The notes beneath the pieces were generated by a model. That model was not told the DNA's origin and did no database searches. It saw nothing but the letters and a program-made list of their open reading frames with translations. From contig JAAOMT010000289.1 in NCBI GenBank assembly GCA_016748015.1, positions 62,001 through 126,000 on the forward strand: a stretch of DNA of 64,000 bases, written 5' to 3'. The DNA comes from Geosiphon pyriformis uo1. Taxonomy: Eukaryota > Fungi > Glomeromycota. Shown one piece after another: positions 4,363 through 63,653 of the stretch (within the stretch, counting starts at the first letter, position 1; each line of letters opens with the position of its first letter). The translations under genes were made by a program, and so were the position numbers.

Positions 4363-4364
4363 AA

Positions 4365-5859: not shown

Positions 5860-5871
5860 TTATTTCCTTCT

Positions 5872-6502: not shown

Positions 6503-6539
6503 TTCTATTTTCTTTGTTGTTTTTGTCGTGTATACTATG

Positions 6540-9150: not shown

Positions 9151-9430
9151 ATTATTGCTAGCTATTGCTTGTTATTGCTAATTATTGCTCATTATTGTTA
9201 GCTATTGCTCGTTATTGCTAACTATTGCTTATTATTGCTAGTTATTGCTCATTATTGCTAGTTATTGCTCATTATTGCTAGCTATTGTTTATTATTGCTA
9301 GCTATTGCTCATTATTGCTAACTATTGCTTATTATTGCTAGCTATTGTTTATTATTGCTAGCTATTGTTTATTATTGTTAGCTATTGCTCATTATTGCTA
9401 GCTATTGCTTGTTATTACTAGTTATTGCTT
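9151..9430. repeat. U3 minisatellite, 14 x 20 bp (RTTATTGCTAGCTATTGCTY), in the 3' LTR of N
   Basis: Direct count; 7 units in the partner LTR (11518-11657); related array at ~36212-36375. Confidence 0.95.
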
Positions 9431-10660: not shown

Positions 10661-11179
10661 AATACTAAAATAAGGATTTTGCAAATTCTAAATAATTTTT
10701 TCCTTGTTTTCTCTTGGTCTTTCACTTTTGTGAATTTTTGGGGATTTGGTCTCTGTAAATTTATAACCTTACAGGGAGCACCAAATGTTATGGGTAAACT
10801 TGGTGAAGTATGGTGATAACATTTGGTGCTCTAATTTAATATTCTAGAGTTGTATGTTTTTTACAGAGTTAATGTTTATTAGTCTCTGAAGATCTTTTCT
10901 GAATGAGAATTTATCTGTTGAGTTCTTTGGTTATAAGGCACAGAGTTTTGGTTTTTGCTGATTGCAACTTCTTATAATGGTGAGCTTTTTTCTCTAAGTT
11001 AATAAGTACAATCATTAGGGTCCAGCATTGTCTTTTTGCTCTTTTGGTAAGCTATCAAGATAATGTTAATATTTAAAAACCTAAGGGAAGCTTCTCTTTT
11101 TTACCAAGCTATTACAAAATCTATTTCCAAACAGTCGATTTTTCTATGTTGTTACTCCACAAGAAAAAAAAAAATAAAA

Positions 11180-11219
<40 letters not shown>

Positions 11220-25371: not shown

Positions 25372-25512
25372 TTGAAGCAAAGAAAAAAGGTCAGCTCAAA
25401 ATAAGCTATTAAATTCAACTATATGACTCATAACTCAATTAGGCTAGGCTTAATTTTGGAAATTTTTGCTCTTATGACCTTTTGTGCTTTAGAAATTTTA
25501 ATTATCAAAAGA
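25372..25512. promoter_or_regulatory. Probable compact bidirectional promoter (IPA1/MSF1)
   Basis: Only 141 bp between the divergent predicted start codons. Confidence 0.55.
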
Positions 25513-27318: not shown

Positions 27319-29759
27319 AGGCGTAATGCCAAGAATTGGTTGAAGATAGGTTATGACCTGGTAAACATGATTATTATTATTTTCATTTTCATTTCATCAG
27401 CATTCGAAGTATTTTTTCTGCTGCAAAAATATCCTTCCCACAAATCGAAATGGGATCATGAACCTACTATTATAACTTTGCAAATTAACAGAGTTGACGT
27501 TCTATGAACATATAACGTCATTTTCAACAATAGGCATTGGAAATTGGCTTCATTAAATTCATTTTGAGAGATAGGCAAATATCTTTGTAAAAATATTCTT
27601 AACAACTCAATTTTAAAGGAGCTTTATTTCATTAAATTCTTAAATTCTTAAAAAAACTGTCAATTTTTTTACTTTTACAATAACTGATTTAAAATATGAA
27701 AGATTTACATTTTATTTAATTTTTTGAAATTTATTTATATGATTTAAATATTAATTTTAAAAAAACAAGTCATTTTATTTTATATATTTATAGTTAATTA
27801 CAATATTATTTTTTAATTATAAGTTTTTTTAAATTTTTAAATTTCAATATTTATTTTATTTTTTAATAATGTAAAATAATATTAAATTTGTTAAAATATT
27901 TAATTTTAAAGTTTTAAAATTACATATGTTATTATATATGTACTTTATTATAATTATTATTAAATGTAAAAAACATATAAGTTATATTTAAAAAATAATA
28001 AAATACTTTTTTCTTATTAATTTTCAAATTACAAAAAAGTAAAAAGTTGTTAAAAAATTATCTTAAGAAAACAAACATATATTATGTTATTATTAATTAC
28101 TATAAGATTATCTTTTTTTTCTCTAATGAGATATACAATTAGATATTTTATATTATAATAATATGTTATTTATAATACATAATTATGGTATAATATAATT
28201 ATCTTAACTTATTATATTGTTTTATTTATATAAAAATAACTATGAATTTGTGTCTAATCTAATATGTCTTTTATTTTCTAATTTAGCACATCTTTTATTT
28301 CTTAATCTATTATATCTTTAATATTGTATTTTTGATTTTATTTATAATTAAACTTTTCTAATATGTAAACTTTCTTAATTATATCATAATACAACAAGTT
28401 TTATATTTATAAAACTTCCACAAATTAACACCAGAAATTTTGCAATATATTTGAATGTTTTTTTCTGTCTTTAATAGTCATACTATAATTAATTTCTATG
28501 ACTTTTTAGATCAAATAATAATATAATAAATTATTTAATTTTAATGCAAGAATAAGTATATTAGTTTTGATTAGTGTTGTTTTTAATTTATGCTGGATTT
28601 TTATTTAATATATTACTACTATTCTCTTATTTAATAATCTAAAAGTTAGTTCAGTAAGTTTTTTCTAACTTTTTAGCAAATATTGGATAATTTTTTTTGG
28701 TGAATATCTTTGTTATTGAATTTAGTATATAGTATAATATTTTTATCAAAATTGCTGTTAGTAACCACTGCTATGCTAGTTCTCCAAGGAAAATTTTTGT
28801 TGTATTCCTATACTTTTGATTGTGTTTTTCCTTAAGACTCCTGTGGAAATACTTTTTTTATCTTATATTAATATTAGACATCTGTGTTTTTTTGCTTATA
28901 GTAAAACAATATTTTATTTTTAGTAAATTCAAAGAAGATTAAAATAAAAAATAGAATTTAACAAAATTAGTATTTATAAAATAATCTTAATCAGAGATTA
29001 TTTTTCCAAAAATATAAAAAGCTTGTTCTGAATTTTTAAGTTATTGTTAATTTTGGCCAAGATATTACAAGTATTTTTTAAGTATTCTTATGTATTTAAT
29101 ATTTTTTTAATGTGTTTTTAATTTTGTTAAGCTTGGGCCTTATTTGTGCTTTTGTTAATATATTGAATGTTTCTACAATTATTTTTTCTCAATAAAAAGA
29201 TAATAATAAGAAAAAAAATAGTGGCTCTTTGAATTATTTACAAAAAACTAGATTATAAAGAAGAATGGTTTTTAATTCCATTAATCTTAGTATCAATGAA
29301 TAATACAAAGCTTGAAAGACATATTGTTCAGCTTTTTTTAAGATTATAATTCAATTTTGTTACTTTTTCTTTATTTTTGTCTAATTAATTTATTGTTTTT
29401 TATTATTCTTTCTTCTTGTTTGTTTTTTTTCTAATTAAAAAGCTATTATATATATACATATTTCGAGTTATACATAATTGTATCTATTTTAACTAATTAG
29501 TAAGTAATTATTAAGCTATTGGGTCTTCTATTTAATTGTGATTGCTTCTTGGTTTACTTGTTTGTAATTATATTAAATTGGATACATTTGTGTATGTTTG
29601 TGTATGTTTTGTACACTATTATGTATATGTCACATTTTCTAATTTTATTTATTAATCTGTGCTATTTATACTATTATTTAATGATTGGTTAATATATTAT
29701 AATATTATTATTTTTGATTTTTGTTAATTTTTATTGAGTAATATTATTTCTTCTTAAAA

Positions 29760-30378
29760 TTAAGCTCCATCAAAATTGATGTGTATTTTTCTAATACCAA
29801 TATCTAACATAAAGGTCTGTATACTTGTTTAAACTATTTGTTTTTGCAAGTTTTGAAATTTATTGTTAATAAGTCTTTCAATTCTATTAAAAATAAATAT
29901 GTTCATTTTATTTATTAACAATACTTTTGAACAATATTAAAACAGCATATAGAATCAATGTGCTGCCTTAAAATAGTGCTTAAAGTTGTTTTTTCTAGTT
30001 AGTTATTTAAACTTCTAAAGTTTTATTTTGTTGATTTTTTTGATATTTTTCTTGATATAAATTGTTTAAAGATCTAATTATATAGTTATTATGAAGTATA
30101 TATAGCAAAAAAAAGCAATTAAGTTTTTTTTTTTGAATATTGTATTTCTTAAGAATTGGAATTTTTCTATAATTTTATTAATTAATATATTAGTGTTTTT
30201 TTGTTTTTTATAATAAGAGTTAAAATAATTTGTGTTTGGTTTATTTTTTTGTGTGGCTAGATTTTTTTTTATATGATATTTTAAAATTATTAAGGATAAT
30301 TTCTAATAAGAAATTATTTTTTTGTAGTAGTTGAAATAAAAATTGGAAAGTATTTATAATATTTTTAGATATATTCAT
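29760..30378 (-). pseudogene. Accessory ORF3 of D
   Basis: MNISKNIINTFQFLFQLLQKNNFLLEIILN ... RKNNFKHYFKAAH*FYMLF*YCSKVLL...NRIERLINNKFQNLQKQI. Confidence 0.75.
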
Positions 30379-31106: not shown

Positions 31107-31805
31107 TGTTATAGGTAATTATTTAAAATGTTGGAACAAATAACAAACCTGTAACTTAGTGCTTAATAGCTAGTAATATTGATAATTTCTGAAGGTTTTG
31201 GAGTCTGAAAGTTTTGGTTAAGTCTTTTGTATAATGAACAGAGATTTAATTAATAATTTTTTCTATGATTTTTTTTTTAACATAATGGTCAGCTATGTCT
31301 TTCTGATAAGCTATCTTTAAATTTCTACTCTTATTCTCAGGTTTTTTACCAAGCTATTTTTAACATCAAATACTCAGTGCTTAATCTTTTTAATTAATTA
31401 GTAAACAGCAAATAAATAAATAAAAAAATAAAAAAAAACAAAAATAAAAAAAAAACAAGATATTAGTATTCTGTTAATAGCCATAATTAAAAGTTATTAT
31501 TTTAAATTAATATAAACTCTATTGAATTTTCTTGAAATTATTTTTTTTGTTTTTAATACTTTTACTATATATATATAATTTATGTTATATAAGATCTCAT
31601 ATTTTTTTAAGCAATATGCCTTATTTTTTTTAACAATGTGTTCATTGTTAAACAGTATACTATAATTTATTAACAATATGCTCATTATTAAGCAATATGT
31701 CATAATTTTCTAATATTGTGCTTACTTGCTAAGTTTTATTCTCCTATTGGTCTATTTTTTTATTTGTTTTTTTTATTTTTTATTTGTACTTTTTTATAAA
31801 TAATA
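31107..31805 (-). mobile_element. Solo LTR (C-like), TSD CTAC/CTGC
   Basis: TGTTA...TAATA termini; shares CTCCTATTGGTCTAT and AGCAATATG repeats with C LTRs; near-identical 4-bp flanks; no adjacent PBS or PPT. Confidence 0.7.
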
Positions 31806-34800: not shown

Positions 34801-35473
34801 CCAAAATCTTGGGTTTTATGTTTAGTCTCTTTTAGTTTTTTTAGATCTTAGTGATAATTAATCTGGTAATTCAAAGTAAAGATAAAAAAATTACTTGTGT
34901 AATTCTTTTTTTTAATTTAATTACATATAATTGATTTAATTTGTTGTGTAATAAAACTATAAAATTTTTTGTGTATTTGAAGTTTATAATTTCTCCTTTA
35001 ATATTAATTTTTTTCTAACTAAATTAGATTGAGAGACTATTTGTATTATGGTTTCAATTGGTATTTTAAACATTATTTTTAGGTCAATTCTGGTAACAAC
35101 AAATGGTTTCAACATTAGTGTTTGATTTTTGGAATATTAGAAATCAAATTCAATATTAGTTAAATGTGTCTATTCTGAAAAAATTCTTTAATTGCTGTTA
35201 ATAAAGCATTTAATGTTTAATTTTTGTTAAAAATTAATAAAAATATGCAAGTTATTTAATAGCATGTCTAGTGTTTGTAAGATTATATCTTTTGCTTTAT
35301 GGTTTGAATAATTTTCAAATTAAGCTGTTTTTTTAAATAATTTAAACTGGAGTTAATAATTAAAATATCATTGTAATTAACAAAAGATTAAGCAGTTCTT
35401 ATACAAATAAGTATTTATCTGTACAAGATATTGTTTCTGTTCTTTTTGTATTGGACAAAGTTCTTAATAATAA

Positions 35474-36478
35474 TATTACAAATTAACTTAATGGGGTATG
35501 GTAGTAACATTTGGTGCTCTAATTTAGTATTCTAAGATTATATGTTTTCCACAGGATTAATGTTTATTAGTCTCTGAAGGTTTTTTCTGGATAAGAATTT
35601 ACCTGTTGAGTTCTTTGGTTATAAGGCACAAAGTTTGTCTTTCATCAATTATAATGTTTTCCATAAATATGAGCTTTCTTTTTCACGTTAATGAGTGCAG
35701 TCATTAGGGTTCAGTGTTGTCTTGTCATCCTTTTGGTAAGCTACCAAGATAACATTAATATTCAAAACTTAGGGGGAGCTTCTTTTTTTTACCAGGTTAT
35801 TACAAAGTCTATTTCAAGACAGTCAATTTTTCTATGTTGCTGCTCCAAACAAAAAAAAAAAAAAAAAAAAAAAAAGAATTAGTTTCTATCAATTGCTGTG
35901 ATCAAGAGTGATTGGTCCAAATCATTAAAAATTCAAGGCATTTATGCTAATGGCATCTGTCTTGGAACAAAGATAGGAAATACTGATTTTAATTTCAATT
36001 AAAATCCATAAGGTTGGAAAACATGAATTGGTAAATTGGATTTTGTGTTTTTGATAATTATTGTATTTCGAACTATGAATATATAATAAGTAGAATACAA
36101 AGTAAAATTAATTTCTAATTAACTGTCTAACTAACTGTCTTTTCAACTTCTATAACTATTTGCTTTTATATATTCTTTTGGTTTTACAGGATTGTTTTCA
36201 ATTGCTTTACTATTGCTAGCTATTGTTTTGTTATTGTTAGCTATTGCTCGTTATTGCTAGCTATTGCTTGTTATTGCTATTTATTGCTTATTATTGGTGA
36301 CTATTGCTCGTTATTGCTATCTATTGCTTGTTATTGCTAGCTATTGCTCATTATTATTAGCTACTGTTTGTTATTATTTGCATTTGTTTTATGTTATTTC
36401 GAGTTGTACTGCATTTTTTTTGTCACATTTTTTTGTCACATTTTTTCATAGCTTTTTGGTTTTTCTACTTAAGTAACA
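35474..36478 (-). repeat. 3' LTR of A1
   Basis: TATTAC...AGTAACA termini; homologous to the N and A2 LTRs. Confidence 0.9.
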
Positions 36479-36489: not shown

Positions 36490-37228
36490 TTTTAGAATTG
36501 AGCTTCTGCAAAATCGTATGTATCTGTTCCTATGTCTTTATTTGTGTAATGTTTGATGGTTGCATTGAGTATTGTTTTTTGTAGGTCTTTGAACTGTCGA
36601 TTGGTAATTCATCCTATGTTGTTAACTGTTATTGTCTTTATAGATCTATACAACAGTATGTTTGGACAGTGTTGGAAAGTGGTGTATAGTTGGTATGCTG
36701 CTTTGTAATATAGGTTTAGGTTCTTCTTCCTATGAATTTTTCTACTTGTTGTATTGCTTCTTTGTTGAAAGTTTTCTGGCTGAAGTCTCTATATAGTGTT
36801 TTTAAGTTTAATTGTTCACTTACTTTGTAGAACCAATAAGTTGGAGGAAGTTTTTCTTTTTATTCCTTTGTATTGTCTGGTGTCCATTCTCCTGTTTTAG
36901 AGAGATTGATCTCATAAGCTAAAGCTTCTTTGATTTCTTCCAGCTCAGGAACCAAGTATCTTCTTTTATAAACTTTTTCTTGTTCCTTCATGCTTTCTTT
37001 AAGCCCTGTTCAAGACAATTTAATTCTTTTTTGTAAAATTCTTTTCTCAGGTAGGGTGTAGGAATAGGAACAATTAGTTTTAATTAAACTCACACCTATT
37101 CCTTTCTTGTTCCTATCTTTATAGCATATTTTTTTTCTATTAATTGTCACTTCTATTTGAGCAGAAAATTGTTGAATTGCATCAAATAATTGTTTTGAGA
37201 GTTGTAAAATTTGATCTGACAAGTCTAT
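36490..37228 (-). pseudogene. Accessory ORF3 of A1
   Basis: SDQILQLSKQLFDAIQQFSAQIEVTIN (ORF 37010-37222); nucleotide colinearity with 49559-50293. Confidence 0.8.
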
Positions 37229-37306
37229 GTTGAAAGTTTTATTGTTTCTTGCTGTTTTTCAGATGCTATATATATTTGAATTCCCTAATTTAATTTGCTA
37301 CATGTT

Positions 37307-41600: not shown

Positions 41601-43561
41601 TAAATCTTTTCAGTAAACAAGATCTGCAGTAGTATTTGGTGGCAATAGGCCATTCTTCATTGTTTCCAATACATGCATCCATAATGGATAGCTTCTTTCC
41701 ACAATTGACACATATTAGTCTTGGAGGTTGGTAAAATAAATTTCTTTGGTCTGAAGTTACATATCCTAGTAATAACAATTGGGATTCTTCTTTGGCTCTG
41801 CTTTTTCCTTTTTCTTCTCAGGTTGGTGGTAAGAATAGTTTAATTTAATAATTGTCCACCCATGAAACCTGATAGATCTTGATGGTTGGCAGTAGTAGTG
41901 TATCTTCAAATTCAATAAGGAGTTCCTTAGAATGTTGGGTTTTAAAGTGTCTGCACATAGCTGAGACTTGGACATGCTGTCTGTTGAACATGAATTGAAG
42001 TTCTTAGGTGTTTCAGTTGAGAGTAGCATTGGGTTTTGACAACCAATCATTTTCTACCAGAGCTTAATATTGAGTAGCTTCTATGATGAGTACTTTAGTA
42101 GGGATCTAGATTCCATTAATCTCGAAGAGGAAATTGTCAATTTCTTCTATTGGGGTTTTTGTGTTTCTATTCGCTGTAATGATCTGAGTGGTAGTAGCAT
42201 AGTCTATTCAGTAATCTAGTTGGTCTATGAACTGTTTCGTGATTATGTTACCAGTTGATCTACTATCCAGGATTAATTTAATGTCTATTCCTCTGACTCT
42301 AATGTCAGTGTATATGGCTGTTATTGGTTTATTTTGATTGATGACTGCTTTACTAAAAAGGCTATGGGTGTTCAAATTATTGATGTCAAAAGAAAATATG
42401 GCAGCTAGAGTGGTGTTCTTGGTAATAGTGGCTGGTGGAATATTACTTTTTGTTGGCTTAGAAGATTGGGAGATTTGTTCTATATTCCTCCCTTCCACAA
42501 ATGTAGATTTATCAAAACCCTGGTTTTCCATGAGACCAAAATAGAAAGCTTGATTCGGGTATTCAGTTGGTGCTGGTCAAAATTGGGCAGGGCTGTGAGA
42601 GATTGGTCAAGACGGTCCGCTGTTGGTTTGCATCTAATTGTTGTTGGAATTCCTTCATCCCTAATTATAGTCTATGGCTCGAGGTCTAAGTTGGCTGTAA
42701 GAGGAAGTTTGATAGTGAAGGATTGCTTGTGTTATTGGTGATAGTTGATAATAATTCTAGGGTAGTAGTTAAATGTACAGGACTTGTTGTGCATACTGGG
42801 ATGGTTAATTTTAAGGTATAAAATATTGGAATATTATGTTTTGCTAATGTCTTGGTTGCTGGTATTGGTTTCCTTAATTTTGGTTCATTATCTTCTTTCT
42901 GCAGTCACAGACAATGTGTTCAGGTTTTTGGCAGTAGTAACAGTTGTGGGGATCAGATCTCCAAGGTTGTTGCTGTTGCTGATGGTTCTGTTGCTGTGAG
43001 TATCTGCTGTTGTTATTATTTTCTTTTTATTGTGGTGGTTGGTAAGTTTCTATGGTTCCGGCTAAGAATTTCTCAATTTTCTGAGTTAATTTCTCACTTA
43101 ATTGGGTTATTTTTGCGTTGATGTCAGAAGTTCTATTAATGGCTAAATTTACAGCTTGGGTATAGTTCACTTCTTGTTCTGTGGATTCAAAATTGCGAGC
43201 AAGAGCAACTGTTTCTTGTAGGTTTGTCAGATGGTGAGATCATATGGATCTTAAGAGACTGCTTCTTAGTCTTTTAATGAATTGATTGAGGACTTGCATA
43301 GTAGTATAATAATTCTGCTTGATGGCTAGGATTTGTCGAAGGACTTAATTGAATCTTTCAAGATAAGTAGTTACTGCTTTATGGTTGTTTTGTTTTATTA
43401 TACTAAATTGATTTTGCAATTAGATGAGTGTATTAAGGTCACAGAAGTATTGCAGAAATGTGCGTTTAAACCCAGTAAAGGAGATAGGTTTCTTTGCAAA
43501 GCTCTAATACTATGAATTAGTAGTTCTGGTCAGAAAGAACAGCAAGATCTAAATTGTGTGA
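38686..43561 (-). pseudogene. gag(3' part)-protease-Cys-rich-dUTPase-RT-RNase H of A1
   Basis: ORFs at 42208 (LILDSRSTG), 41575 (CVNC...YCRSC), 40564 (SRSNLA, IIDAKY, KIAQ), 40210 and 39259 (RT) all share one frame. Confidence 0.9.
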
Positions 43562-44550
43562 TGTTACCAGAGGTTTTTGGTCTCTTTTTTTGAATGTTGT
43601 AACTGTTTGTTGGTTGCAAATTCACATTTTCTAGAAGTAGTTGAACCTTCAATAACTGAATTTATCTTCAAATTATCTCCTATAATTTAACTGCTGGGCT
43701 TATAAGCAGAATGGCCAATTCCTTGCCAGTTATTTTATGTAGTTACGTTGTAGTAAATGTCAACTCTTTCCCAGAAATTGCTCATCTGGAAGCTCACTAA
43801 AAATGTGTAGTTACTTTGCTGTAAAAGTCAACTCTTCTACAGAAATCTTGTCTGTAGGCTACTCTAATGATTGTAATAAGAAAAGAAAAGAAAAATAAAA
43901 GAAATGTAAAAGAAATAGAATTTTATCAAGGAAAACATTTTCTATCCAGGCCTGGAGTCATTAACAGTTTACTGAAATTGGTAGCTAATCAATTTCAAAA
44001 CGTTAGTTGGGTTTTGGGAATTTTCCAAGTGCAATAATTAAAGAATTTGGTTTTTCAAATTATTTGATATTTATTTCTTTTTGTGTGTATAGGAATGGTT
44101 CTAAGTGATAAATCTAAAGTAAGATACATTTTCTTGAAGAAAAAAGCTCTTTTTTTATACAACTTGTTGTAGTACTAGTCTATGAACTTGCACTTTTTCT
44201 CTTTGCTCAAATTTTGGTGAATTAAAGATACATTTTGATGGACTACAAGTTATTTTGCTGAACTATTGATTAATTTGAATAAACTATTCATAATTTCGGC
44301 AAATTTCTATAAATTTCGGCGAATTTCTGTAAATTTCGGCGAATTTTTGAATGTTACAAAGTTCAAAGTATTGTGTAATTTGATCATCCTACTTTTTGTT
44401 ATACTAATTGGATTATTTAATTGAATCGTGATATGTAATAATTGATTAAATAATAAATGATAATTTGAAATGATATTAATATACTAATTAATTATAGGAA
44501 TTATAAGAGTAATTTCATGCTAATTAATAGCTAAAATTCTACTGGTAACA
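43562..44550 (-). repeat. 3' LTR of B
   Basis: Direct repeat of 62664-63653. Confidence 0.96.
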
Positions 44551-44561
44551 TAATCTCCTCT

Positions 44562-45238
44562 TCAAGACTAAGCTCCATTAAAATCCAAGCACTATCTGTG
44601 ATATTAAGATAGTGATCCAAAATAATTGAAGTAATCTGGTCTGAAAATTGTTGAAATTTCAGTTCTGTAAGTTTGCCAATGTATTGGACTTTCATTGGTT
44701 GCAGTATTGGATTTTATAGAACATTTTCACAAGTATTAAACAAATCATAAAGTCTAAAAGCTGCTCTAAGTTTGTAGCAAGTGTTTGTTGGTCCAGCTGC
44801 TGTTTTGAATTCATTATGAATTTGTTTTTGTATAGCTTCAGGAATGAGATTTGTTGTTTTAAGTTCCAGTTTTCGTTTATAAAGTGTCTTTCCAATGTGA
44901 AAATATTTATAGATAAAAGTGTGTTCATTGTTCTGTTCATTGAGAAGTAGTAGAAGTTTTTGTTGCATTGTAGCATTTAGTGGAATGTTAATAAGGGCAA
45001 TTAAAAAATTTTCTTCCAGTACTTGTTTCAAAAGTCTTGGTAACTTATTTTCAGAGTAACTTCTTGTTTTTCTTCTATAGGGGTGATAGTTCTGTAAATG
45101 ATTTACTACTGGGGCTGTGGTTTCTTTCTGAATGTAATTAATTTGACTTTTATTAATTGTTATGGATAAGTCAGGAAGTGTTTTTAAGACTAACATTAAC
45201 TTTTGGGATATTTGTTGAATATTTCGGAGAATAATCAT
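44562..45238 (-). pseudogene. Accessory ORF3 of B (174-aa ORF, homology continues past an internal stop)
   Basis: MIILRNIQQISQKLM...LSITIN...YKYFHIGK...LRAAFRLYDLFNTCENVL*NP...IGKLTELKFQQF. Confidence 0.8.
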
Positions 45239-45389: not shown

Positions 45390-46764
45390 TCAAGTTTGGT
45401 TGTTGTTCTATTATAATTATTGGTTCTAAATTTCGGGAAATATCTTCAGGATTAATTAAAGAGGAATGTGTACCAATTTGTGAAATTAGTGGTTCAGGAT
45501 TGTTTCTGAATTGATAGTGTTTCAATCTGTCTCCATGTGCAACTTTTGCTAGTATTTTGTCATCAAGTCTTAACTTGTATAATTTATTGCCTAGAATTTT
45601 GTAAATATAAAATGGTCCATCCCATTTATGTTCAAATTTTCCACTTCATTGTTTTTCAGCCTTAGTTCTGTGTAAGAGAACTTTATTTCCAACTTTAAAT
45701 TCGTTGGTTATGAGTGGTAATTTGTTGTCATGTCTTTCTTTTTGTTGAGCTTAGGAATGTTCAATATGAGTTGCTGCTATTCTTTTTTTTCCTTCCAGTG
45801 TACTAAGAAGAGTGTAGGCCCTTTTTTGGAGTGTTTCTTGAAAGTTTTCTTTATTAATTGGTTGTACAGGGTATGTTTCTACTGTGAAATTAATTGGTAA
45901 TATTGCTGTCCTTCCATAAGTAAAGTCAAATGGTATGTGTTTCATAGTATCTTGTTTTAGTGTTCTGTATGCTAGTAACACTGATGGAATAAAGATATCC
46001 CATTCCTGTTTAAAGTCTGTTAAGACTTTGGCTAGAGATTCACACAATGTTCTGTTGAAACATTCTACAAGTTCATTTGTTTGAGGGTGATAAGATGATG
46101 ATAGAGGTCTTTTGACATTGAATCGTTCACAAATTTTTTGTATCAAGTTGTTCACAAAATGTGTTTCTTGATCAGATAAAAGTTCAATTGGACATCTATG
46201 TCTACAGATAATGTCTTCATAGATGAAATTTGCTACTGATTTTGTATCTGCTCTTTGGATGACTCTAGCTTCAGACCATTTGGTAAAATAATCCACTGCA
46301 ACTACAATATAATAATTTTTTTGGGTTGTGATAGATAATGGTCTGATTAAATTAATTCCAACTCTGTCAAAAAGTTGTCCAACTTTGATTGGATTTAAAA
46401 GTTCTGTGGGGCAAGTTCCTTTTTTTCTTTGACAACTATCACAAGATTCTACATATTGTCAAATGTTTTTTTGCATATGAAACCAAAAATAATGTTCAAG
46501 AATTCTTTAAATTGTTCCATCTCTTCCCAAGTGTGCTGAAGAAGGATCTGTGTGCATGTTGTATAAAATTGTTTCTTTTTCATTTTCCTGTACTAATCTA
46601 AGTGGTTGGTTTGGGTTTTTATGATTTTGGTAATAGATTTTGTTGTGGTGTATAAAATATTGTTTGGATTGGTGTTGTAATCGATGTTTTTCACTTGGAG
46701 ACCAATTTTCTGGCATGGTGAAAGTCTTCAAATAGTTTTTGATGTTGTAGTTTTCTGGATCTAT
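45390..46764 (-). pseudogene. Integrase of B (separate ORF)
   Basis: MHTDPSSAHLG zinc-finger part; DYFTKWSEA...LLSDQETHF...YHPQTNELVECFNRTL; WDGPFY module. Confidence 0.92.
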
Positions 46765-48481: not shown

Positions 48482-49544
48482 TGTTATGAGTAAACTTGGT
48501 GAGTATAAGAAATGGTAATGTTTGGTGCTCTCAATTTTAGATGATGCGTTTTCTGCATAATTCTGTTGGCTTAGTCTTGATTATCAGTCTCTGAAGGTCT
48601 ATTTCTGGATGTGAATTTACCCATTGAGTTCTTTGGTTATAAGGCACAGAGTTTGTCTTTTGTTAATTGCAATGTTTTTTGTAAATGTAAGCTTTCTTTT
48701 CCGAGCTAATAAACACAGTTGTTAGGGTCTGGCATTGTCTTTTCACCCTTCTGGTAAGCTAACAAGATAATGTTATTATCCAAAACTTAGGGGGAGCTTC
48801 CCTTTTTTACCAGGCTATCACGAAGTTTATTCTCAGACAGTCGATTTTACTATGTTGTCACTCCACAAAAATAAGACAGAAAAAAAAAGAAAAAGAGAAA
48901 AAAAGATAAATTAATATCATCAATCGCCATTATCAAGAGTAATTGGTCCAAATCGTTAATAGGTTAGAGGCAGTTATGCTAAGAGCATCTGTCCTAGAAT
49001 GGAGGTACAAGACAAGGGTTAATTCACGTAAATTCCACAAAGTTCAAGAACATAAATTCGTGATTCTGATTTCTTTTTAATAATTGGTTTATTTCAGGAG
49101 ATAAAATAAAGAAGATAATAAAGGATGAAGGGGTATGAATATTTAATTCTTGTCTAGAGGTTTGTATCTATCTGTCTATCTTTTCTCACTTTTACAACTA
49201 CTTGCTTTTATACATTCTTTTGGTTTTACAGAATTGCTTTCAATTGTTTCGCTATCACTAGCTATTGCTTTGTTGTTTTTGTTATTGCTTTGTTTTTCTA
49301 TGTTATTGCTAGTTATCCTATGTTATAACATGTTATCTGACGTTATTACATGTTATTCTGTGTTATCCTACATTATAACACATTATTCTACGTTATTGTG
49401 CACTATTTTGTGTTATTCTGCATTATAACATATTATCCTATGTTATAATGTGTTATCCAACGTTATTGCGCATTATTCTGTGTTATGTCATGTTTTGGTC
49501 ACGTTTTTTCTTAACTTTGGATTGGTTTTTCTACTTGGGTAACA
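48482..49544 (-). repeat. 3' LTR of A2
   Basis: Direct repeat of 57580-58642 with TG...CA termini. Confidence 0.96.
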
Positions 49545-49558
49545 TTATCTCTCTCTTT

Positions 49559-50293
49559 TTAAAATTGAGCTTCTGCGAAACTGTATGTATTTGTTATCAT
49601 GGCTTTGTTCGTGTAATGTTTGATTGTTGCCTCGAGTATTGCTTTTTGTAGGTCTTTGAACTGTTGATTGGTTATTCGTTCTATGTTGTTAACCATTATG
49701 GTTTTCATAGATCCATTCAATAGCACATTTGGGCAATGTTGGAAGGTGGCATATAGTTGATATGCTGCTTTGTAATATAGGGTCAGGTTGTTTTTTTCTA
49801 CGAATTTTTCTACTTGTTGTATTGCTTCTTTGTTAAATGTTTTCTGGCTGAGGTCTTCATATGGTGTTTTCAAATTAAGCTGTTCTCCAATTTTGTAGAA
49901 CCAATAAGCTGGGGGAAGTTTTTCTTTCTATTCCTGGATATTGTCAGGTGTCCACTCCCCTGTTTTGGGGAGTTCGATCCCACGAGCTAAAGCTTCTTTT
50001 ATTTCTTCAAGCTCGGAGACCAAGTATCTTCTTTTGTAACCTTTTTCTTGTTCTTTGCCTCCTTTTTTTCTACCTCCTGCCCAAAGACAATTTTTCCTCC
50101 AACATTGTCTTTTGGGTGGTAGGTAGGGGAGAGAACATTTAGTTCTAATTGAACTCTCATCTTCTCCTCTCCTGTTCTTATCTTTGTACTATATCTTTTT
50201 TTTATCAATTGTTATTTCTATTTGAAATGTCAATTTTTAAATTGTTTCAAATAATTGTTTAGATAATTTTAAAATTTGATCTGAAAGGTTCAT
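49559..50293 (-). pseudogene. Accessory ORF3 of A2
   Basis: ATG at 50293 (MNLSDQILKLSKQLFETI); WFYKIGEQL...YYKAAYQLYATFQHCPNVLL...IERITNQQFKDLQ...EAQF*. Confidence 0.82.
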
Positions 50294-50373
50294 GTTGAAA
50301 TTTCTATTGTTTCTTGCTGCTTTTCGGATGCTATATATATTTGAATTCCCCAATTTAATTTGCTGCCCATTGT

Positions 50374-51741
50374 CTACATTTTAATGACAATGATTGGTTT
50401 CAGATCTTGTGGTATATCTTCTGGTCTAATTAATGAAATTTGTGTTCCTAGTTGAGGTACTGATGATGATAATTCCTGTTTTACATGATAAATTTTTAAC
50501 TGATTTCCATGTGCTACTTTTTTTAAAATCCTGTCTTCCAATCGTAATTTGTAAGCTTTATTTCCTAATGCTTTATGTATGTAGAATGAACTGTCGCACT
50601 TTGGGTCAAACTTTCCACTCCACTGTTTCTCAGCTTTTGTACGATGTAACAGTACTTGGTCTCCAATCTTGAATTCCATTGGTTGTTCTGATAGGTGTTT
50701 ATTATGTCTTTCTTTTTGTCATTCTTGAGCGTAACTAATATTGTCAGCTGCTGTTCTTTGATTGTTTTTCAATATTTCCATTAGCTGGTATGTTTTTTGG
50801 TGTAAGATAGCCTCAAAATTTTTTTCATTAATTGTTTCTGTTGGGTATGACAGTATTACTCGTTCAATCGGTAATGTAGCTTTTCTTCCATAGACTAGTT
50901 CGAACAGTGTGAACTGAGTCATATTTTGTTTCAATGTTCGGTATACAAAAAATACAGAAGATATGAATAAGTCCCATTCTTGTCTGTTTTTATGACTTAT
51001 TTTTGCTAGTGCTTTGCATAGTGTTTTGTTAAATTGTTCTACCAGTCTATTTGTTTGTGAGTGGTATGGTGACAATAAGGGTCTCTTTATTCCAAACCAT
51101 TGGCTTAGTTCAGTTAGTGTATTATTAATAAAGTGTGTTTCCTGATCAGATAATAATTCTTTTGGACATCCATGTCAGCAAATTAGGTTTTGATGCACAA
51201 ATTTGGCAACTGTTTTGGCATCAGCCACTTGGATTGCTCTGGCTTCTGGCCATTTTGTAAGATAGTCTATGGCTACAATAATATAGTAATTTCCTTGGGA
51301 TGTAATTGAAAGAGGTCCAACCAAATTGATCCCAATTCTATCAAATAGATTTCCAACTGGAATGGGTCGAAGTGGTTCTGTTGATCTTGCTCCTTCTCTT
51401 TGCTGACATGCGTCACAATTGAGCACATATTCAAAAATGTCTTTGTACATTGTTGGCCAATAGTATAAGTTTAGTGTTCTTTCAAGGATAGCATCTTTGT
51501 TAAAGTGTTCTGCAGTCAGATCTGAGTGCACACTATATAGTATAGTTTCTCTTTCACTGTTCTTGATTAGTCGTTGTGGGTTGGAGTGGTTTTGGTGTTC
51601 TCGTCGATATAGTTGGTTGTTTTGAATAAAATAATTTCGGGCTTGTTTTTATATGGTACTCTGTTCCTGTTGAGATAATATCTTCTTGAAACATAGTGTC
51701 GATAGGTACTGATGTAGTTGTTGATAAGTGAGTGTGTCCAT
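50374..51741 (-). pseudogene. Integrase of A2 (HHCC, DDE core, GPF/Y C-terminus; no chromodomain recognised)
   Basis: ORFs at 51649, 51175, 50719 and 50374 share one frame; MHSDLTAEH...CDAC; IGINLVGPL; YHSQTNRLVEQFN. Confidence 0.93.
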
Positions 51742-51751
51742 GGATTTGGGA

Positions 51752-53130
51752 TTAGGTTTGTGGCATTTTCGACAAACTGTCAGCATTGGTGTTCTTGGAT
51801 CCTTCCTTGTAATGGACTTTGAGTGGGAATTGTTGCAGATAAGTACTTCATCTCGCATATTTTCCTTCTAGTTGTGGATTGTTGAGTAACCAAATAAGTC
51901 TTTTGTGGTCAGTATATAGATTAAATGGTTAACTGAGGTAATGTTTCCAAGTCTGTACAGCCCAATAAATGGTGAAACATTTCAGATCTGTTGTGCTGTA
52001 ATTCTTTTCTACTGGGCTAGTGCTGCGATTAACATAGACAACTGGGTGTTTTCTATTGTCCGGTCCTATCTGTGATAAGACTGCTCCTAGAGCATTTTTC
52101 GAGACATCTGTAGCAACAATAAACTGTTTAGTGAAATCTGGGTAAATCAGGATTGGGGATGTGATCAATCGCTGCTTGAGATAGTCAAATGCTTTCTGTT
52201 GATCTTCCTTCCACAAGTACGGTACGTATTTGGACAACAATTGATGGAGTAGTTTTATGATGTTCGAAAAACCTTTAACAAATCAACGATAATATCCTGC
52301 CAATCCTAGAAATCTTCATAATTCTCTGAGGTTGATTGGAGCTAGAAAATTCTTGACTTTTTGTACTTTATCTGAATTGGGTTTAACTCCATTCTTGCCA
52401 ATTACATGTCTTAGGAATTTTAACTCGGTTTTTCTAAAAAAGCACTTCTCGGGATTGAGTTTCAATCTGGCACTACAAAGACATACAAAAACTTGTTGCA
52501 GGTGGAGCAAATGGTCATCAAATGTTTCGAAGAACACATTTGTGTTATCTAGGTAGACTACTACTGATTTCCAAAGGATTTCTTTGTATACTACATCCAT
52601 TAGGCGTTGAAATGTGGCAGGAGCATTACAAAGTCCAAAAAGCATTACGTTAAACTCGAAGTTTCTGTCTTAAGTGGTAAATGCTGTTTTTTTTTTGTCT
52701 TTGGGATCTATTTCAACTTGCCAGTAACAACTTGCTAAATCTAATGATGAGAACCATTTCTTTTTTCCTAGATTGTCCAGAATTTCCTGGATGAAGGGAG
52801 TGGGATAATTATCTCTTCGCATGATGCTATTTAGTTTTCAATAATCTACGCAGAATCACACTTTTCCATTTTTCTTGGTGACTAAGACTACTGGAGAGAA
52901 CCAAGGGCTTAACAATTCTTTGATTAGGCTGTTATCAAGCATCCGTTGCACTTTTTGCTTAATTAGGTTATTGCCAGATGGGAGTACGTGGTAAGCTCAT
53001 TGCTTAATCAGTCAAGCATCTCTCATATCAATCTGATGTTTCACAATGTTGGTGCGTCCGAACTCATTTTCACTGGCAAAGACATTGGCATACTAATTCA
53101 GAAGGACTTTAAGTTGCATTTGTTGCAGGG
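51752..53130 (-). pseudogene. RT and RNase H of A2
   Basis: FGLCNAPATFQRLMD...VYLDNT (YxDD site); ATDVSKNALGAVLSQ; ends NADSLSKMPQT*. Confidence 0.93.
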
Positions 53131-53574
53131 TACTTAAATTTCTTAAATTCAATTTATTGATTTCTTCTGGTGTGAACAAGTAACTTTCTTTTGGCAAATT
53201 TCATACTTGTAAGATAATGTCACAGAATAAGAATAATTGTGCAAAATCTGGAATGGACTGGGGTTTTTCAGAATTCTGAATATCTGCGAATATGAACTGA
53301 CAAGGGTCCCTTCAGGAATTTCAATGACATCTTCTGTCGGGTTGTGGATGGAGATTTTGAAGTGTTTATGGGCTTTGGCTGGTAGGTATAGATTAGCAAC
53401 ATTGGCTAGGAAACAGATTTTGGGACTGGCTTTGAATAACAGGGCTTGATCTTGGATCTTTTGATTCACCTTGAGGATGTATTGTTGGTATGGGGGAATG
53501 GAGATAACGGTGTTGGTGTTGATAAATTCTACCTGGTTACTGTCTTCCTCCATGAAATTAACTGCTACATTTCC

Positions 53575-53970
53575 TCTTCCACTTGATCCAAACCCATTGA
53601 TTCCTTGGGCAGTGAGGTCTAACTCTTTTTGGATTGTTACCAGAGTTAATTGGGGTATTTTGACTAGGGGTAGAAAGATAGCTTGGGCAATCTTTTCTTG
53701 TGATTCTATTTTGTAGGGTCTGTCCGAATTGTTCTGTAGCATCACAATAATGTTTCCCATATAACCAGCATCGATGATTCCTTCTTTTACGGCAATTTTT
53801 TTCTTGGCTAGACTAGATCAAGAGACAACTTGTACCATTGTACTAACAGGAATTTCTAACACTATTTTAAAATCTATTTTTACAAGGGAATGTGGGGCTA
53901 TAATGATGAGTAATTGTCTGGAGTATTGTAGGTTGAAACCAGCATCGGTGTCATGCGCTTTTTTGGGGCA
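53575..53970 (-). pseudogene. Trimeric-type dUTPase domain in the A2 polyprotein
   Basis: All five motifs in order: DAGFNL, S*SSLA, IIDAGYMGNI, KIAQAI, QGINGFGSSG. Confidence 0.92.
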
Positions 53971-55038
53971 GATTCCTTCCTCATTGTTACTGTACCATTT
54001 TAGCTCTAGTTTTTTGGATAGGTCGGGATATGCGAGATACTGTTCTGTTTTGGTATCCTCAATTGGATCTTGAAATGACATGTCCTCAGTAATCAATACC
54101 TCTTCTTCAGGCTCAGGTAGTTCGGTAATTGGAAACAGTATTCTTGGAGGCAGATTGACCATGAGATCACATTTGTTACAGTACTGGAAATAACAGAGGA
54201 TCAAACAGTGATTGCACAGTTTGGTATTCAAATCGGCCAACCTTTGCTCCTGTTCTTTGTAAGTCAGGGCCAATTCCTGATATCAGTTCTGAAATGCATC
54301 TGGGTCATCTGTGAAGAAATCATCCTTGGGGTAGTCGAGTCCATTATATTCGGGTGTCCAAGAGTTGTCCTTGATTTCTCATATTTCTTCAGACGTGGTG
54401 TCTTCAGCCTTGGTGCTTGCCATTCTCTAGATTTCGTGGTCATTATATGGATAACTGTTCAGCCTGTTGAGGGCTCATTTCCAAGTGTCCTTGATGGGGG
54501 TTCCCTTTCATACCCAATCATTGATTAATATGGTGTATTGACAAGCCTTGTCATATGTTTCCCCTCTGCCAAGCACATCATTCCAGAGTCCTTCATCTGG
54601 CAGGATTTCGCCACATGCGAGGCACGACATATTGTCTCACTTGCCTTGTCATTTTGGTTATCCAAATCTTTCCAGTAAACAAGGTCTGCAATAGTATTTG
54701 GTGGCAGTAGGCCATTCTTCGTTGTCTCTGATATATGTGCCCATAGTGGATAGTTTTTTTCCACAATTGACACATATTAGTCTTGGGAGTTGGTAAAATA
54801 AGTTTCTTTGGTCTGAGGTTATGTATCCTAGTGATGATGATTGGGGTTTTTCTTCGGCTCTGCCTTTTCTTTTTTCTTCCCAAATTGGTGGTGAGGGTAG
54901 TTCAGTTCAATAATCATCTGCCCATAAAACCTGATAGGTCTTGATGGTTAGTGGCATTAATGTGTCTTCGAATTCAATAAGGGGTTTCTTAGTACATTGG
55001 GTTTTAAAGTGTCTGCATGTAGCTGGGACTCGGGCATG

Positions 55039-55380
55039 CTATCTGTTGAACGTGAGTTGAAGTTTTTGGGTGTTCCAGTCAAGAGTAGCATTGGCTTTTG
55101 ACAACCAATCATTTTTTACTAGAGCTTGATATTGAATAGCTTCTATGACAAGTACTTTGGTAAGGATTTGGATTTCATTAATCTTAAAGGGAAAGTTGTC
55201 AATTTTTCCTATTGGGGTTTTTGTGTTTCCATCTGCTGTAATGATCCGGGCAGTAGTGGCATGATCTACTTGGCAACCTAGTTGGTCCATGAGCTGCTTT
55301 GTGATTATGCTACCGGCTGATCCACTATCCAGGATTAATTTAATGTCTATTTCTTCGACTCTGGTATCAGTGTATAAGGC
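55039..55380 (-). pseudogene. Retropepsin aspartic protease of A2
   Basis: IKLILDSGSAGSII...ITADG...ALVKNDWL. Confidence 0.92.
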
Positions 55381-55599
55381 TGTTATTGGTTTATCCTGAT
55401 TAATGACTGCTCCACTAAAAAGACTATGGGTGTTCAAATTATTGATGTCAAAAGGAAATATGGCGGCTAGGGTGGTGTCTTTGGTAATAGTGACTGGTGG
55501 GATATTGCTTTTTGTTTGCTTGGAAGGTTGGGAGATTTGTTCTATATTCCCCTCTTCCACAGGTGTAGATTTATCAAAACCCTAAGCTTGATTTGGGTA

Positions 55600-57540
55600 T
55601 CCAGTTGGTGTTAGTCAAAATTGGGCAGGACCACGAGGGATTGGTCGAAACAGTCTACTGTTGGTTTGCACCTGATTGTTGTTGGGATTCCTCCATCTCT
55701 GATTATAGTCTATAGCTCGAGGTCTGGACAGGCTGTAAGGGAAAGTTTGATAGTGAGAGATTGCTTGTGTCATTGGTGGTAGTTGATAATAATTCTGGGG
55801 TGGTGGTTGAGTGTACAGAATTTGTTGTGCGTATAGAGGCAGTTGATTCTAAGGTATGGAATATTGGGGTACCATGTTTTGCTGATATCTGGATTGCTAA
55901 TATGGGTTTCTTTGATTTTGGTCCATGATCTTCCTTTTGCAGTCACAGGCAATGTGTCTAGGTTTCTGGCAGTAGTAACAGTTGTGGGGATTGGATCTCC
56001 AAGGTTGTTGCTATTGCTGATGGTTTTGTTGCTGTGGATATCTGCTGTTGTTGTTATTTTCTCTCCGTTGGGGTGGTTGGTAAGTTCCTGTAGTTCCAGC
56101 TAAGAATCCCTCAATTTTCTGAGTTAGTTTTTCACTCAATTGGGTTATCTTTGCATCGATGTCAGAGGTTTTATTAATGGCTAAATTAACGGTTTGGGTA
56201 TGGTTTGCTTCTTGTTCTGCAGACTCAAAATCGCAAGTGAGAATGACAGTGTCTTGTAAACTGGTTGGATGGCAGGATCTTATGAATCTTAGAATACCAC
56301 TCCGCAATCCTTTAATGAATTGATTAAGAACTTGTGCTGCAGTGTAGTAGTCCCTTTTGATAGCTAATATTTGATGCAAAATTTGATTGAATTGTCCGAG
56401 ATAAGTAGTTACTGCTTTATAATCTTTTTGTTTAATTATGCTGAATTGATTCTGCAATTGGATTAACATATTGAGATCACAGAAGTATTGCAGAAATGCA
56501 AGTTTAAACTCAGTAAAGAAGGTAGGTTTCTCTGTAAGGCTCTAATACCATGAATTGGCAGTTTTGGTCAGAAAAAATGGCAGTGCCTGAATTGTGCAGT
56601 TGTTGTTTCAACTGTTAGTGGTAATTGCTTTCTCAGCATCCGCAATCCAAGAATATGCATTATCTTTTTCACCAGAGAATTTTTCCAATTTAGCAATATC
56701 CTGGTAAGCCATGATCTGGTTAATAGGTGGGGTGTTACTGGTTATGTTTAAAGGGATTAGTGTCTACATATTCAAGTGTTCTCTGGGTGCTAATGCTGGT
56801 TGTTTTTCTTTGTTGCTTGAACCAATAGGTTGTAAGATAGCTGTTTTTTCCATCAAGGGAGATGCTGATTCTGCTAGGTTTTGTGCTGGTGGCTGTTCTC
56901 AAGTTGACGGGTTTTCTTCTGTTTGACTGGCTGCTGGAGTAAGATTTCCAAACAGTAATCTATATTCTCCTAGTGATTTGGTCCAACTGTGTTGATTCCA
57001 AGGGTGTGGATTTCCAGGAGTTCGTGGTGTTTCTGACTGGGTTTCCAGGGGTGGGTTGAATACAATTCTACTCTGGAGTGTCTGATAGTATAATGGAGTT
57101 GTTGGGAAAAAGACCCTTGGTTTCTTGTTGACTGTGAACTTGGCTTGGGCAGTTACGGGGTTGTTGGATTCATCTTCGTATTCTTCAAGGTCAGATTTCA
57201 CTGGTTGTTGTACTTGAGGGAATTGTTATACCATGTAATATTTAATGTCTGTATCAATTATGCACAGAGTTTTAGTGATTGCTCGGGTAGTCATGGCTGT
57301 TGAGTACCCTAGTAAGCTTTGATGGATTTGTTCTCCAAGTCTTTCTGTATCAGTTGCGTGGCCTAACAAACAGTCAATTTTTGCGTTAATATAGTTACAA
57401 AAAATCACTTTCTGTATAAGTGGTTTCTGTTGGTATTCCTAGGTCTTTTCGAAAGTATTGAAATAGTGCTTTTCCGTACAAGGAGTGGTCCTTTCCTATT
57501 GTTCTAATAGTTGCCACTTTTATGTATTTTTGGGGATGCT
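55600..57540 (-). pseudogene. gag of A2 with CCHC zinc knuckle
   Basis: Retrotrans_gag-like QFSIIKQKDYKAVTTYLGQF...NQFIKGL; CYYCQKPRHIACDC at ~55940-55985. Confidence 0.88.
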
Positions 57541-57579
57541 CTGTCTCTGTGGATTTATAATCTCATAAGGAGCACCAAA

Positions 57580-58642
57580 TGTTATGGGTAAACTTGGTGG
57601 GTATGGGAAATGGTAACATTTGATGCTCTCAATTATGGATAATGCATCTTCTGCGTAATTCTGTTGGCTTAGTCTTGATTATCAGTCTCTGAAGATCTAT
57701 TTCTGAATGTGAATTTATCCGTTGAGTTTTTTGGTTATAAGGCACAGAGTTTGTCTTTTGTTGATTGCAATGTTTTTTGTAAATATGAGCTTTCTTCTCT
57801 GAGCTAACGAGTGCAGTCATTAGGGTCTGGTGTTGTCTTTTTGCCCTTCTGGTAAACTAACAAAATAATGTTAATATCCAAAACTTAGGAAGAGCTTTCC
57901 TCTTTTACCAGGCTATCACGAAGTCTATTCCCAGACAGTCGATTTTACTATGTTGCCACTCCACAAAAATAAGACAGAAAAAAAAAGAAAAAGAGAAAAA
58001 AAGATAAATTAGTATCGTCAATTACCGTGATCAAGAGTGATTGGTCCAAATTGTTAATAGGTTCGAAGTAATTATGCTAAGAGCATCTGTTCTAAAATGG
58101 AGGTACGAGACAAGGGTTAATTCATGTAAATTCTACGAAGTTCGAGAACATAAATTTGTGATTCTGATTTCTTTTTAATAATTGGTTTATTTTAGGAGAT
58201 GAAATAGAGAAGATAATAAAGGATGAAAGGGTATGAATATTTAATTCTTGTCTAAAGGTTCATATCTATCTGTCTGTTTTTTCTTACTTCTACAACTACT
58301 TGCTTTTATATATTCTTTTGGTTTTACAGAATTGTTTTTAATTGTCTCGCTATTACTAGCTATTGCTTTGTTGTTTCTGTTATTGCTTTATTTTTCTACG
58401 TTATCACTAGTTATCCTATGTTATAACATGTTATCTGACATTATTACATGTTATTCTGTGTTATCCTGTGTTATAACATGTTATCCTATGTTATTGCGTG
58501 CTATTCTGTGTTATTCTGCGTTATAACACATTATCCTATGTTATAACGCATTATCTAACGTTATTGTGTGTTATTCTGTGTTATGTCACGTTTTAATCAC
58601 GTTTTTTCATAACTTTGGATCAGTTTTTCTACTTGGGTAACA
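57580..58642 (-). repeat. 5' LTR of A2
   Basis: Adjacent to PBS TGGTGCTCCTTATGAG; direct repeat of 48482-49544. Confidence 0.96.
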
Positions 58643-62630: not shown

Positions 62631-62663
62631 TTTACTGTGTTATTTCTGTAAGAGAGCACCAAA

Positions 62664-63653
62664 TGTTACCAGAGGTTTTTGGTCTCTTTTTTTGAATGTT
62701 GTAACTGTCTGTTGGTTGCAAATTCACGTTTTTTAGAAGTAGTTGAACCTTCAATAACTGAATTTATCTTCAAATTATCTCCTATAATTTGACTGCTGGG
62801 CTTATAAATGGAATGACCAATTTCTTGCCAGTTACTTTATGTAATTACATTGTAGTAAACATCAACTCTTTTCCAGAAATTGCTCGTCTGGAAGCTCACT
62901 AAAAATGTGTAGTTATTTTGCTGTAAAAATCAACTCTTCTACAGGAATCTTGTCTGTAGGCTACTCTAATGATTGTAATAAGAAAAGAAAAGAAAAATAA
63001 AAGAAATGTAAAAGAAATAGAATTTTATCAAGGAAAACATTTTCTATTCAGGCCTGAAGTCATTAACAGTTTACTGAAATTGGTAGCTAATCAATTTCAA
63101 AACGTTAGTTGGGTTTTGGGAATTTTCCAAGTGCAATAATTAAAGAATTTGGTTTTTCAAATTATTTGATATTTATTTTTTTTTGTGTGTGTAGGAATGG
63201 TTCTAAGTAATAAATCTAAAGTAAGATACATTTTCTTGAAGAAAAAAACTCTTCTTTTATACAACTTGTTGTAGTACTAGTTTATAAATTTGCATTTTTT
63301 CTCTTTGCTCAAATTTTGGTAAATTAAAGATATATTTTGATGGACTACAAGTTATTTCGCTGAACTATTGATTAATTTGGATAAACTATTCATAATTTCA
63401 GCGAATTTCTATAAATTTCGGCAAATTTTTTATAAATTTCAGCAAATTTTTAAATGTTACAAAGTTCAGGGTATTGTGTAATTTGATCATCTTACTTTTT
63501 GTTATACTAATTGGATTATTTAATTGAATTATGATATGTAATAATTGATTAAATAATAAATGATAATTTGAAATGATATTAATATACTAATTAATTATAG
63601 GAATTATAAGGGTAATTTCATGCTAATTAATAGCTAAAATTCTACTGGTAACA
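62664..63653 (-). repeat. 5' LTR of B
   Basis: Adjacent to PBS TGGTGCTCTC; direct repeat of 43562-44550. Confidence 0.96.

Follow-up and report, generated by a model that had tools for sequence, protein, structure and literature searches.

A third gene under purifying selection between the integrase and polypurine tract of Geosiphon pyriformis Gypsy elements, possibly a regulator of its own LTR

Additional open reading frames (ORFs) in sense orientation are common in LTR retrotransposons and, in the account of PMC7264820, mostly unexplained; those that lie between pol and the 3' LTR are termed aORF-3S (PMC7264820; PMC11963269). For fungal elements, PMC2864245 describes an 'add. ORF' whose function is unassigned there, and a dUTPase between PR and RT. 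The gene reported here, ORF3, shares position, orientation and spread over copies and families with the aORF-3S and the fungal 'add. ORF' (PMC7264820; PMC2864245). However, the plant aORF-3S are described as Env-like (PMC7264820), whereas ORF3 has no transmembrane segment; moreover, no sequence link between the aORFs and ORF3 was found, and ORF3 has a candidate promoter of its own and follows a stand-alone integrase ORF. Accessory genes between pol and the 3' LTR are also known as the TRP28 antisense ORFs of Retand and gene23 of maize Grande, whose products are proposed to be nuclear DNA-binding regulators and of which the Grande gene is cited with its own promoter (PMC11963269; PMC7264820). 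By contrast with ORF3, which is in sense orientation and has no match to Transposase_28 (PF04195) in Pfam scans, these genes are antisense, plant-specific and carry that domain (PMC11963269; PMC7264820). We found no published description of ORF3 itself, which the TE libraries in the supplements of published studies may annotate.

Two kinds of element-encoded regulator offer a further comparison. VANC proteins are the anti-silencing proteins of Arabidopsis VANDAL transposons and act on fast-changing tandem targets (PMC5735166; PMC13547354). Like ORF3, VANC is an element-encoded accessory protein accompanied by family-specific tandem repeats in non-coding element DNA (PMC5735166), but it is cargo of a plant DNA transposon, related to MAIN (PMC13547354), with no sequence or fold link to ORF3 found, and its binding and demethylation are shown (PMC5735166), whereas DNA binding by ORF3 is predicted. 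No VANC-type family was among the Pfam matches listed for ORF3. The second kind is the retroviral transactivators, of which PMC7264820 names Tat. By analogy, and without a sequence link, ORF3 may work like VANC or the retroviral transactivators.

The window, the whole stretch of 64,000 nucleotides that was analysed, has a G+C content of 30%, and most of it is filled by nested minus-strand LTR retrotransposons, with a short host-gene island among them. These elements show the organization of Ty3/Gypsy, with gag followed by PR-RT-RH-IN, LTRs bounded by TG..CA, a PBS, a PPT and a target duplication; the domains follow one another as gag, protease, dUTPase, RT, RNase H and integrase. Element A2 occupies 48482-58642 and element B 43561-63653, both on the minus strand. 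Their parts and those of elements A1 and C are as follows.

48482-49544, minus strand: A2 3' LTR, with a 10-bp-period array at ~49250-49500, upstream of the TATA-like box at 49213
49545-49558, minus strand: A2 polypurine tract
50374-51741, minus strand: A2 integrase, encoded by an ORF apart whose own ATG lies 10 nt past the RNase H stop
51752-57579, minus strand: A2 gag-protease-dUTPase-RT-RNase H region, decayed
57580-58642, minus strand: A2 5' LTR, sharing 89% identity with the 3' LTR; PBS-like TTTGGTGCTC comes next; flanks ATAT/ATGT
35461-36478 (far end approximate), minus strand: A1 3' LTR, with a 20-bp array of eight copies, plus-strand unit TATTGCTAGCTATTGCTTGT
43561-44550, minus strand: B 3' LTR, with a 20-bp array at 44292-44346, upstream of the TATA-like box at 44163
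62663-63653, minus strand: B 5' LTR, 95% identical to the 3' LTR; 4-bp target duplication TCAC
5510-5859, minus strand: start of the C 3' LTR, with AGCAAT repeats with dyad, 40-bp period; TATA-like box at 5620-5630

Several features of the surroundings were recorded alongside. Between 35461 and 63653 the elements are triply nested, A2 being inserted in B (between dUTPase and RT) and B in the gag of A1, with target duplications of 4 bp. All four PBS-like sites (57570-57579, 62654-62663, 10776-10785 and 4355-4364) start with TTTGGTGCTC. The 5' half of an A-like element, 74% identical to A2, lies at 1-5355, with its LTR at ~4300-5360 and its 3' end beyond the window, and more LTR copies of the A1 and C types are found at 8395-9600, 10700-11770, 12280-12680 and 31340-31800; the number of 20-bp units per array varies between 8 and 15 in A1-type LTRs. 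The host-gene island (24760-27032) holds a HECT_2-domain gene on the minus strand and a phenylalanyl-tRNA-synthetase-like gene on the plus strand. Plus-strand fragments at 12723-13668, in which RNase H is matched weakly (E 0.002), are probably a non-LTR element.

An earlier note on this DNA had placed a third ORF between integrase and PPT in five divergent copies. The ORF is indeed there at all five loci, always on the minus strand and encoding homologous proteins, and a metagenome element (L001) has its own sense ORF in the same place. The five loci represent four families, since A1 and A2 show 78% identity along 8 kb.

49559-50293, minus strand: A2 ORF3, 244 codons, ATG intact, three premature stops, ending right before the PPT
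36492-37228, minus strand: A1 ORF3, belonging to the A2 family, its start position reading ATA, three stops and one frameshift
44531-45238, minus strand: B ORF3, 235 codons, one premature stop, continuing past the PPT to end 20 nt inside the LTR
5873-6502, minus strand: C ORF3, a single frame with ATA at the start position and eight premature stops
29754-30378, minus strand: D ORF3, heavily decayed, with many stops and at least one frameshift

None of the five window loci holds an intact copy, premature stops being present in all and frameshifts also in A1 and D. Unbroken relatives exist elsewhere: the A2 protein is 80% identical to an unbroken 244-residue protein (P0001), C has an unbroken relative of 211 residues (P0212), and B has many that are annotated. 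ORF3 ends just before the PPT in A, C and D and reads through it into the LTR in B, which is why the end given for B in the earlier note (44562) was too short; the true ORF runs from 45238 to 44531. One metagenome homologue (P0174) reads past the PPT into the LTR as well, as does another (P0168), judged by its C-terminal sequence. Just 5' of the PPT, a GAGCT(C/T)A..(T)T motif occurs at 44531-44570, 49545-49575, 5860-5890 and 29744-29770, and at 3090-3125 of L001. Its DNA is conserved, and the frame in which ORF3 reads it in B and L001 is other than that in A, C and D; it is therefore probably a cis signal, the final ORF3 residues being incidental.

Profile searches support the homology of these proteins across families. 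A profile of ten family-A proteins detected B, C and D in the six-frame translated window (iE 1e-8, 8e-24 and 6e-14), and a profile of seven metagenome homologues, containing no window family, ranked the five loci first to fifth (iE 5e-24 to 1e-6), followed by two N-terminal pieces of ORF3, while the best match outside ORF3 scored negative. A profile-profile comparison of A with B gave a probability of 95% (E 3e-8). The three-part C-terminal motif of the earlier note proved too strict: A2 and B fit in full, A1 and D each fit a single part, and C fits none.

The relatives that were listed or looked up come almost entirely from one species. All 38 matches to the A2 protein are from G. pyriformis, one being 100% identical over half of the query, which assigns the window to this species or to a very close relative, and a profile search returned 258 proteins at E 0.01, of which all of the 120 matches listed are from G. 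pyriformis. Searching 1.84 billion representatives gave 91 matches, 75 of them new; among 20 of the new ones looked up, 17 are from G. pyriformis and three are metagenome clusters. A third search (19 matches) added two metagenome proteins. Of the 222 ORF3 proteins collected, 80 are near full length; at a minimum they represent families A and C, two subtypes of B and another two families from Geosiphon. No relatives were found in viral contigs or phage genomes. The suggestion that the protein contains a motif common in Glomeromycotina hypothetical proteins is unsupported at the thresholds used, which cover links down to E 0.001, because every named match listed is from G. pyriformis and no named Rhizophagus or Gigaspora protein is among them. 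In the metagenome locus L001, from an independent genome, RT-RNase H and integrase are followed by a 316-nt spacer and then by ORF3, PPT and the start of an LTR. In a second metagenome contig (L002, 1.3 kb, with no integrase visible), an unrelated-looking ORF of 137 codons (398-811) lies immediately upstream of the ORF3 homologue and is possibly a fourth gene in some lineages.

ORF3 is inherited vertically with its dUTPase-bearing Gypsy clade. An integrase tree (five rows, without D because of its heavy decay) and an ORF3 tree (21 rows, with a long-branch warning) both separate B and L001 from A and C (96/94 and 96/96). Between families, integrase identity is 51-61% and that of the ORF3 C-domain 15-36%. 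From the congruent trees and the lower identity, we infer that the clade has long carried ORF3 and that this gene changes faster than the enzymes do.

Selection was gauged from transversions between A1 and A2. As uncorrected proportions from this one pair of decayed copies, pN/pS was 0.18 in the C-domain (7/313 vs 6/47, Fisher p 0.003), 0.31 over the whole of ORF3 and 1.12 in the linker, which thus evolves neutrally between the two copies; integrase gave 0.14 and RT 0.13, and three pseudo-frames in the LTR gave 0.55-0.81, one of them reaching p 0.05. The C-domain is under purifying selection, with a ratio well away from 1, as expected of the selected accessory gene that the earlier note had proposed. 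No positive selection on ORF3 was seen in this comparison. Taken together, these results show that the ORF3 loci are a true third gene under selection, homologous across four families and the metagenome element.

The protein appears to consist of two parts joined by a linker. A model of the full protein (P0212, 38 sequences, pLDDT 74.7) is that of a soluble protein, with an N-terminal helix and two strands (pLDDT in the 60s), a basic linker of low confidence that is predicted to be disordered, and a helical domain. The N-terminus is modelled as a helix plus hairpin, and a signal peptide was assessed by hydropathy. The linker, basic and rich in Tyr, Pro and Arg, is found in all families, and strong basicity is lacking in six of the nine full-length proteins (pI 5.4-8.5). 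Modelled alone by AlphaFold (L001, 36 sequences), the C-domain is all-helical, with seven helices (pLDDT 89.5, pTM 0.84). In its conserved core, a helix with Y-[YF]-x-[IL]-G is followed by a second one, and a G-K-[TK]-N turn then leads into a helix that closes with R-L-Y-x-x-F; the helix-G(K)(T/K)N-helix part is predicted to be a helix-turn-helix.

No curated Pfam family matched the window copies or their relatives. The nearest lead was DUF1016_N (PF17761), the N-terminal domain of E. coli YhcG-type PD-(D/E)XK proteins, which we take to be a helix-turn-helix domain. P0089 scored 12.9 bits (E 0.12) against a gathering score of 32.8 bits, placing ORF3 outside PF17761 by the Pfam cut-off, and a second Pfam scan gave a best E of 0.037, in 2 of 36 members. 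In the ESM Atlas, DUF1016_N was matched at 0.89 (rank 14), behind a top three of mostly bacterial clusters (0.91-0.93); the full protein gave no usable match there. Aligned with a 14-sequence DUF1016_N alignment, which was chosen for this test after showing up as a lead, ORF3 scored 28.2 over 61 columns (probability 30%, P 5e-4), exceeding all 40 block-shuffled controls (maximum 19.2). The likeness includes the Y-x-x-I-G helix, the second helix, the G-containing turn and the R-x-Y-x-x-F helix. In VIA comparisons of the C-domain, the DNA-binding domains of Spo0J (Z 4.7, rmsd 5.3, 94 aligned) and KorB (Z 4.0, rmsd 7.9, 92 aligned) span most of the model, and a ParB-parS structure aligned over 59 residues (Z 4.2, rmsd 3.0); these ParB-type entries rank 9, 27 and 37 among the best 50, in a list led by unrelated helical proteins, with Z below 5. 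Domains of this kind have entered eukaryotes before: in chlorophytes and chytrids, ParB-type helix-turn-helix domains occur joined to adenine methylases (PMC4738411).

Other searches returned little. Foldseek found nothing at E 0.001 with the full model (pdb, viral) or the C-domain (viral), the best C-domain match being an uncharacterised phage protein at E 0.094; VIA with the full model gave nothing clear (best Z 4.7; 4.6 in a second VIA run), and a sequence search of the PDB no significant match. Among PHROGs, phrog_23683 was matched by 8 of 14 members (best E 2.5e-4). No PD-(D/E)XK or other nuclease family was matched in Pfam, ORF3 ending at the PPT or the LTR edge. ORF3 differs from the DUF1016_N and ParB proteins in lacking a nuclease or ParB catalytic domain, in its extra N-terminal helix-hairpin and in its eukaryotic retroelement context. 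The helix-turn-helix leads from Atlas, Pfam, profile-profile and VIA comparisons converge weakly, being not fully independent and none over threshold. No described Gypsy accessory domain was recovered, Pfam and fold searches staying below threshold, and the nucleic-acid-binding regulator or anti-silencing protein suggested in the earlier note is plausible, the leads to a helix-turn-helix being sub-threshold.

We then considered the DNA around ORF3, where candidate promoter boxes and one copy of an LTR array core lie upstream of the gene.

50329-50339, minus strand: TATATATAGCA, a TATA-like box that precedes the A2 ORF3 start by 46 nt; the 11-mer recurs as the TATA-like box of the C LTR
37264-37274, minus strand: TATATATAGCA, a TATA-like box that precedes the start position of A1 ORF3 by 46 nt
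6538-6549, minus strand: TATA-like box TATATAAAAGCA, 47 nt upstream of the C ORF3 start position, resembling the box in the A LTRs
45424-45440, minus strand: B array core copy CCGAAATTT, ~200 nt upstream of the B ORF3 start, in the last integrase codons

In L001, TATAAAT stands 126 nt before the ORF3 start. No TATA box was found before ORF3 in B or in D, the latter being unreadable; in B, a TAG that closes a pyrimidine tract 12 nt ahead of the ATG might serve as a splice acceptor. Five matches to the TATA pattern were seen against 0.69 expected, a figure inflated because the pattern was derived from those very sites, and two of the five lie off the promoter position. Arrays with family-specific units and a period of 10, 20 or 40 bp lie above the LTR TATA-like box in A1, A2, B and C, as well as in the A-like element at 1-5355; the array is weak in D, and L001 has four dispersed GCCCT-core copies without a 10-bp period. 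Within 350 nt upstream of ORF3, the U3 motif recurs in B (reached by 2 of 300 shuffles) and L001 (0 of 300), and is not enriched by the same measure in A2, A1, C and D. CCGAAAT occurs five times in the 8-kb interior of B and at most once in each of five other interiors, and the A interiors show no enrichment of the A-type core.

The integrase is likewise set apart. In all six elements the RNase H frame ends a few codons past its last conserved motif and integrase is a separate ORF, with junctions at 51760-51741 (A2), 38694-38675 (A1), ~46840 (B), ~7980 (C), ~33000 (D) and 770-800 of L001. The integrase ATG is intact in A1 and A2 (10 nt past the stop, in another frame) and in L001 (24 nt past, same frame), a layout that suggests stop-restart translation.

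The reading that we favour, at a probability of about 45%, is that ORF3 is expressed separately and acts in the nucleus as a soluble, DNA-binding regulator of its own LTR, the binding being predicted. ORF3 would be made from its own short transcript, enter the nucleus by way of the basic linker and bind the U3 array in phase with the helical turns of the DNA; it would then switch on the LTR promoter of its own family or shield it from methylation, and in B and L001 might act on its own promoter as well. In support are the periodic arrays, the motif recurrence in B and L001 and, in A1, A2 and C, a TATA-like box ahead of ORF3. Against it stand the sub-threshold fold evidence, the modest basicity, the lack of a TATA box ahead of ORF3 in B and D, the dispersed U3 motifs of L001 and the four of six elements with no upstream motif, and also the fact that the A1 and A2 array units differ, sharing an AATAAC core alone, despite a putative recognition helix that differs by one residue. 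U3 tandem arrays can also serve host factors instead. A more ambitious version, in which a three-cistron Gypsy clade (gag-pol, integrase, ORF3) encodes a sequence-specific LTR transactivator or anti-silencer with a ParB/DUF1016-related helix-turn-helix that co-evolves with the U3 arrays and drives the LTR expansion of Geosiphon, is speculative and, as a whole, rather unlikely.

Other roles would account for parts of the same evidence. ORF3 might bind element RNA and aid export, translation or packaging of unspliced genomic RNA in a Rev-like manner, a role that could be of consequence given that integrase forms its own cistron further downstream, behind a stop in 6/6 elements; the basic, Tyr/Pro/Arg-rich linker of all families and a phage translation-repressor cluster (0.86) among the Atlas matches would suit it. 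Yet that linker is neutral between A1 and A2, no RNA-binding fold stood out in the VIA comparisons and the recurrent leads are DNA-binding-type domains, and we regard this role as unlikely. A protein that counters silencing by binding a host factor (a methyltransferase, an RNAi component or a chromatin factor) and not nucleic acid would fit the state of the elements. Their LTR pairs differ nearly exclusively by C/T and G/A changes in every context: the A2 pair (48482-49544 vs 57580-58642) shows 107 transitions and five transversions, with C-to-T changes at CpA (47), CpG (24), CpT (21) and CpC (15). CpG observed/expected is 0.00-0.33 in the elements against 0.84 in host genes, and the changes look like methylation-driven or RIP-like decay that is not CpG-limited. 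TE methylation and small RNAs are reported for Rhizophagus (bioRxiv 10.1101/2021.03.30.436303), and the low identity of ORF3 between families relative to integrase is as in arms-race proteins. Such a silencing antagonist is nonetheless distinctly improbable, as positive selection was not seen and no likeness to a host domain was found by Pfam, Foldseek or VIA.

More doubtful again is a role as targeting or assembly partner of the separate integrase, a chromodomain stand-in steering insertion into other elements. ORF3 directly follows the stand-alone integrase ORF in 6/6 elements, and A2 sits in B and B in A1; however, the TATA-like boxes of ORF3 in A1, A2 and C point to separate expression, and nesting is expected by chance where LTR elements make up 41.2% of the genome (PMC11952901). 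Finally, position alone would make ORF3 an Env-like membrane protein or a neutral passenger. All nine full-length proteins (196-244 aa) lack a 19-residue hydrophobic segment (maximum Kyte-Doolittle mean 0.44-1.29), which bears out the absence of a transmembrane segment claimed in the earlier note, the C-domain is under purifying selection, and the gene is kept across families whose integrases are 51-61% identical. Hydropathy, selection and homology across families largely refute both ideas, which we consider very improbable.

For G. pyriformis, the finding means that well over a hundred annotated 'hypothetical proteins' are copies of ORF3, which is relevant to annotation. Unbroken copies are available for no fewer than five diverged families, together with a confident domain model and family-specific candidate targets, so that the predicted regulation by ORF3 of its own promoter becomes directly testable.
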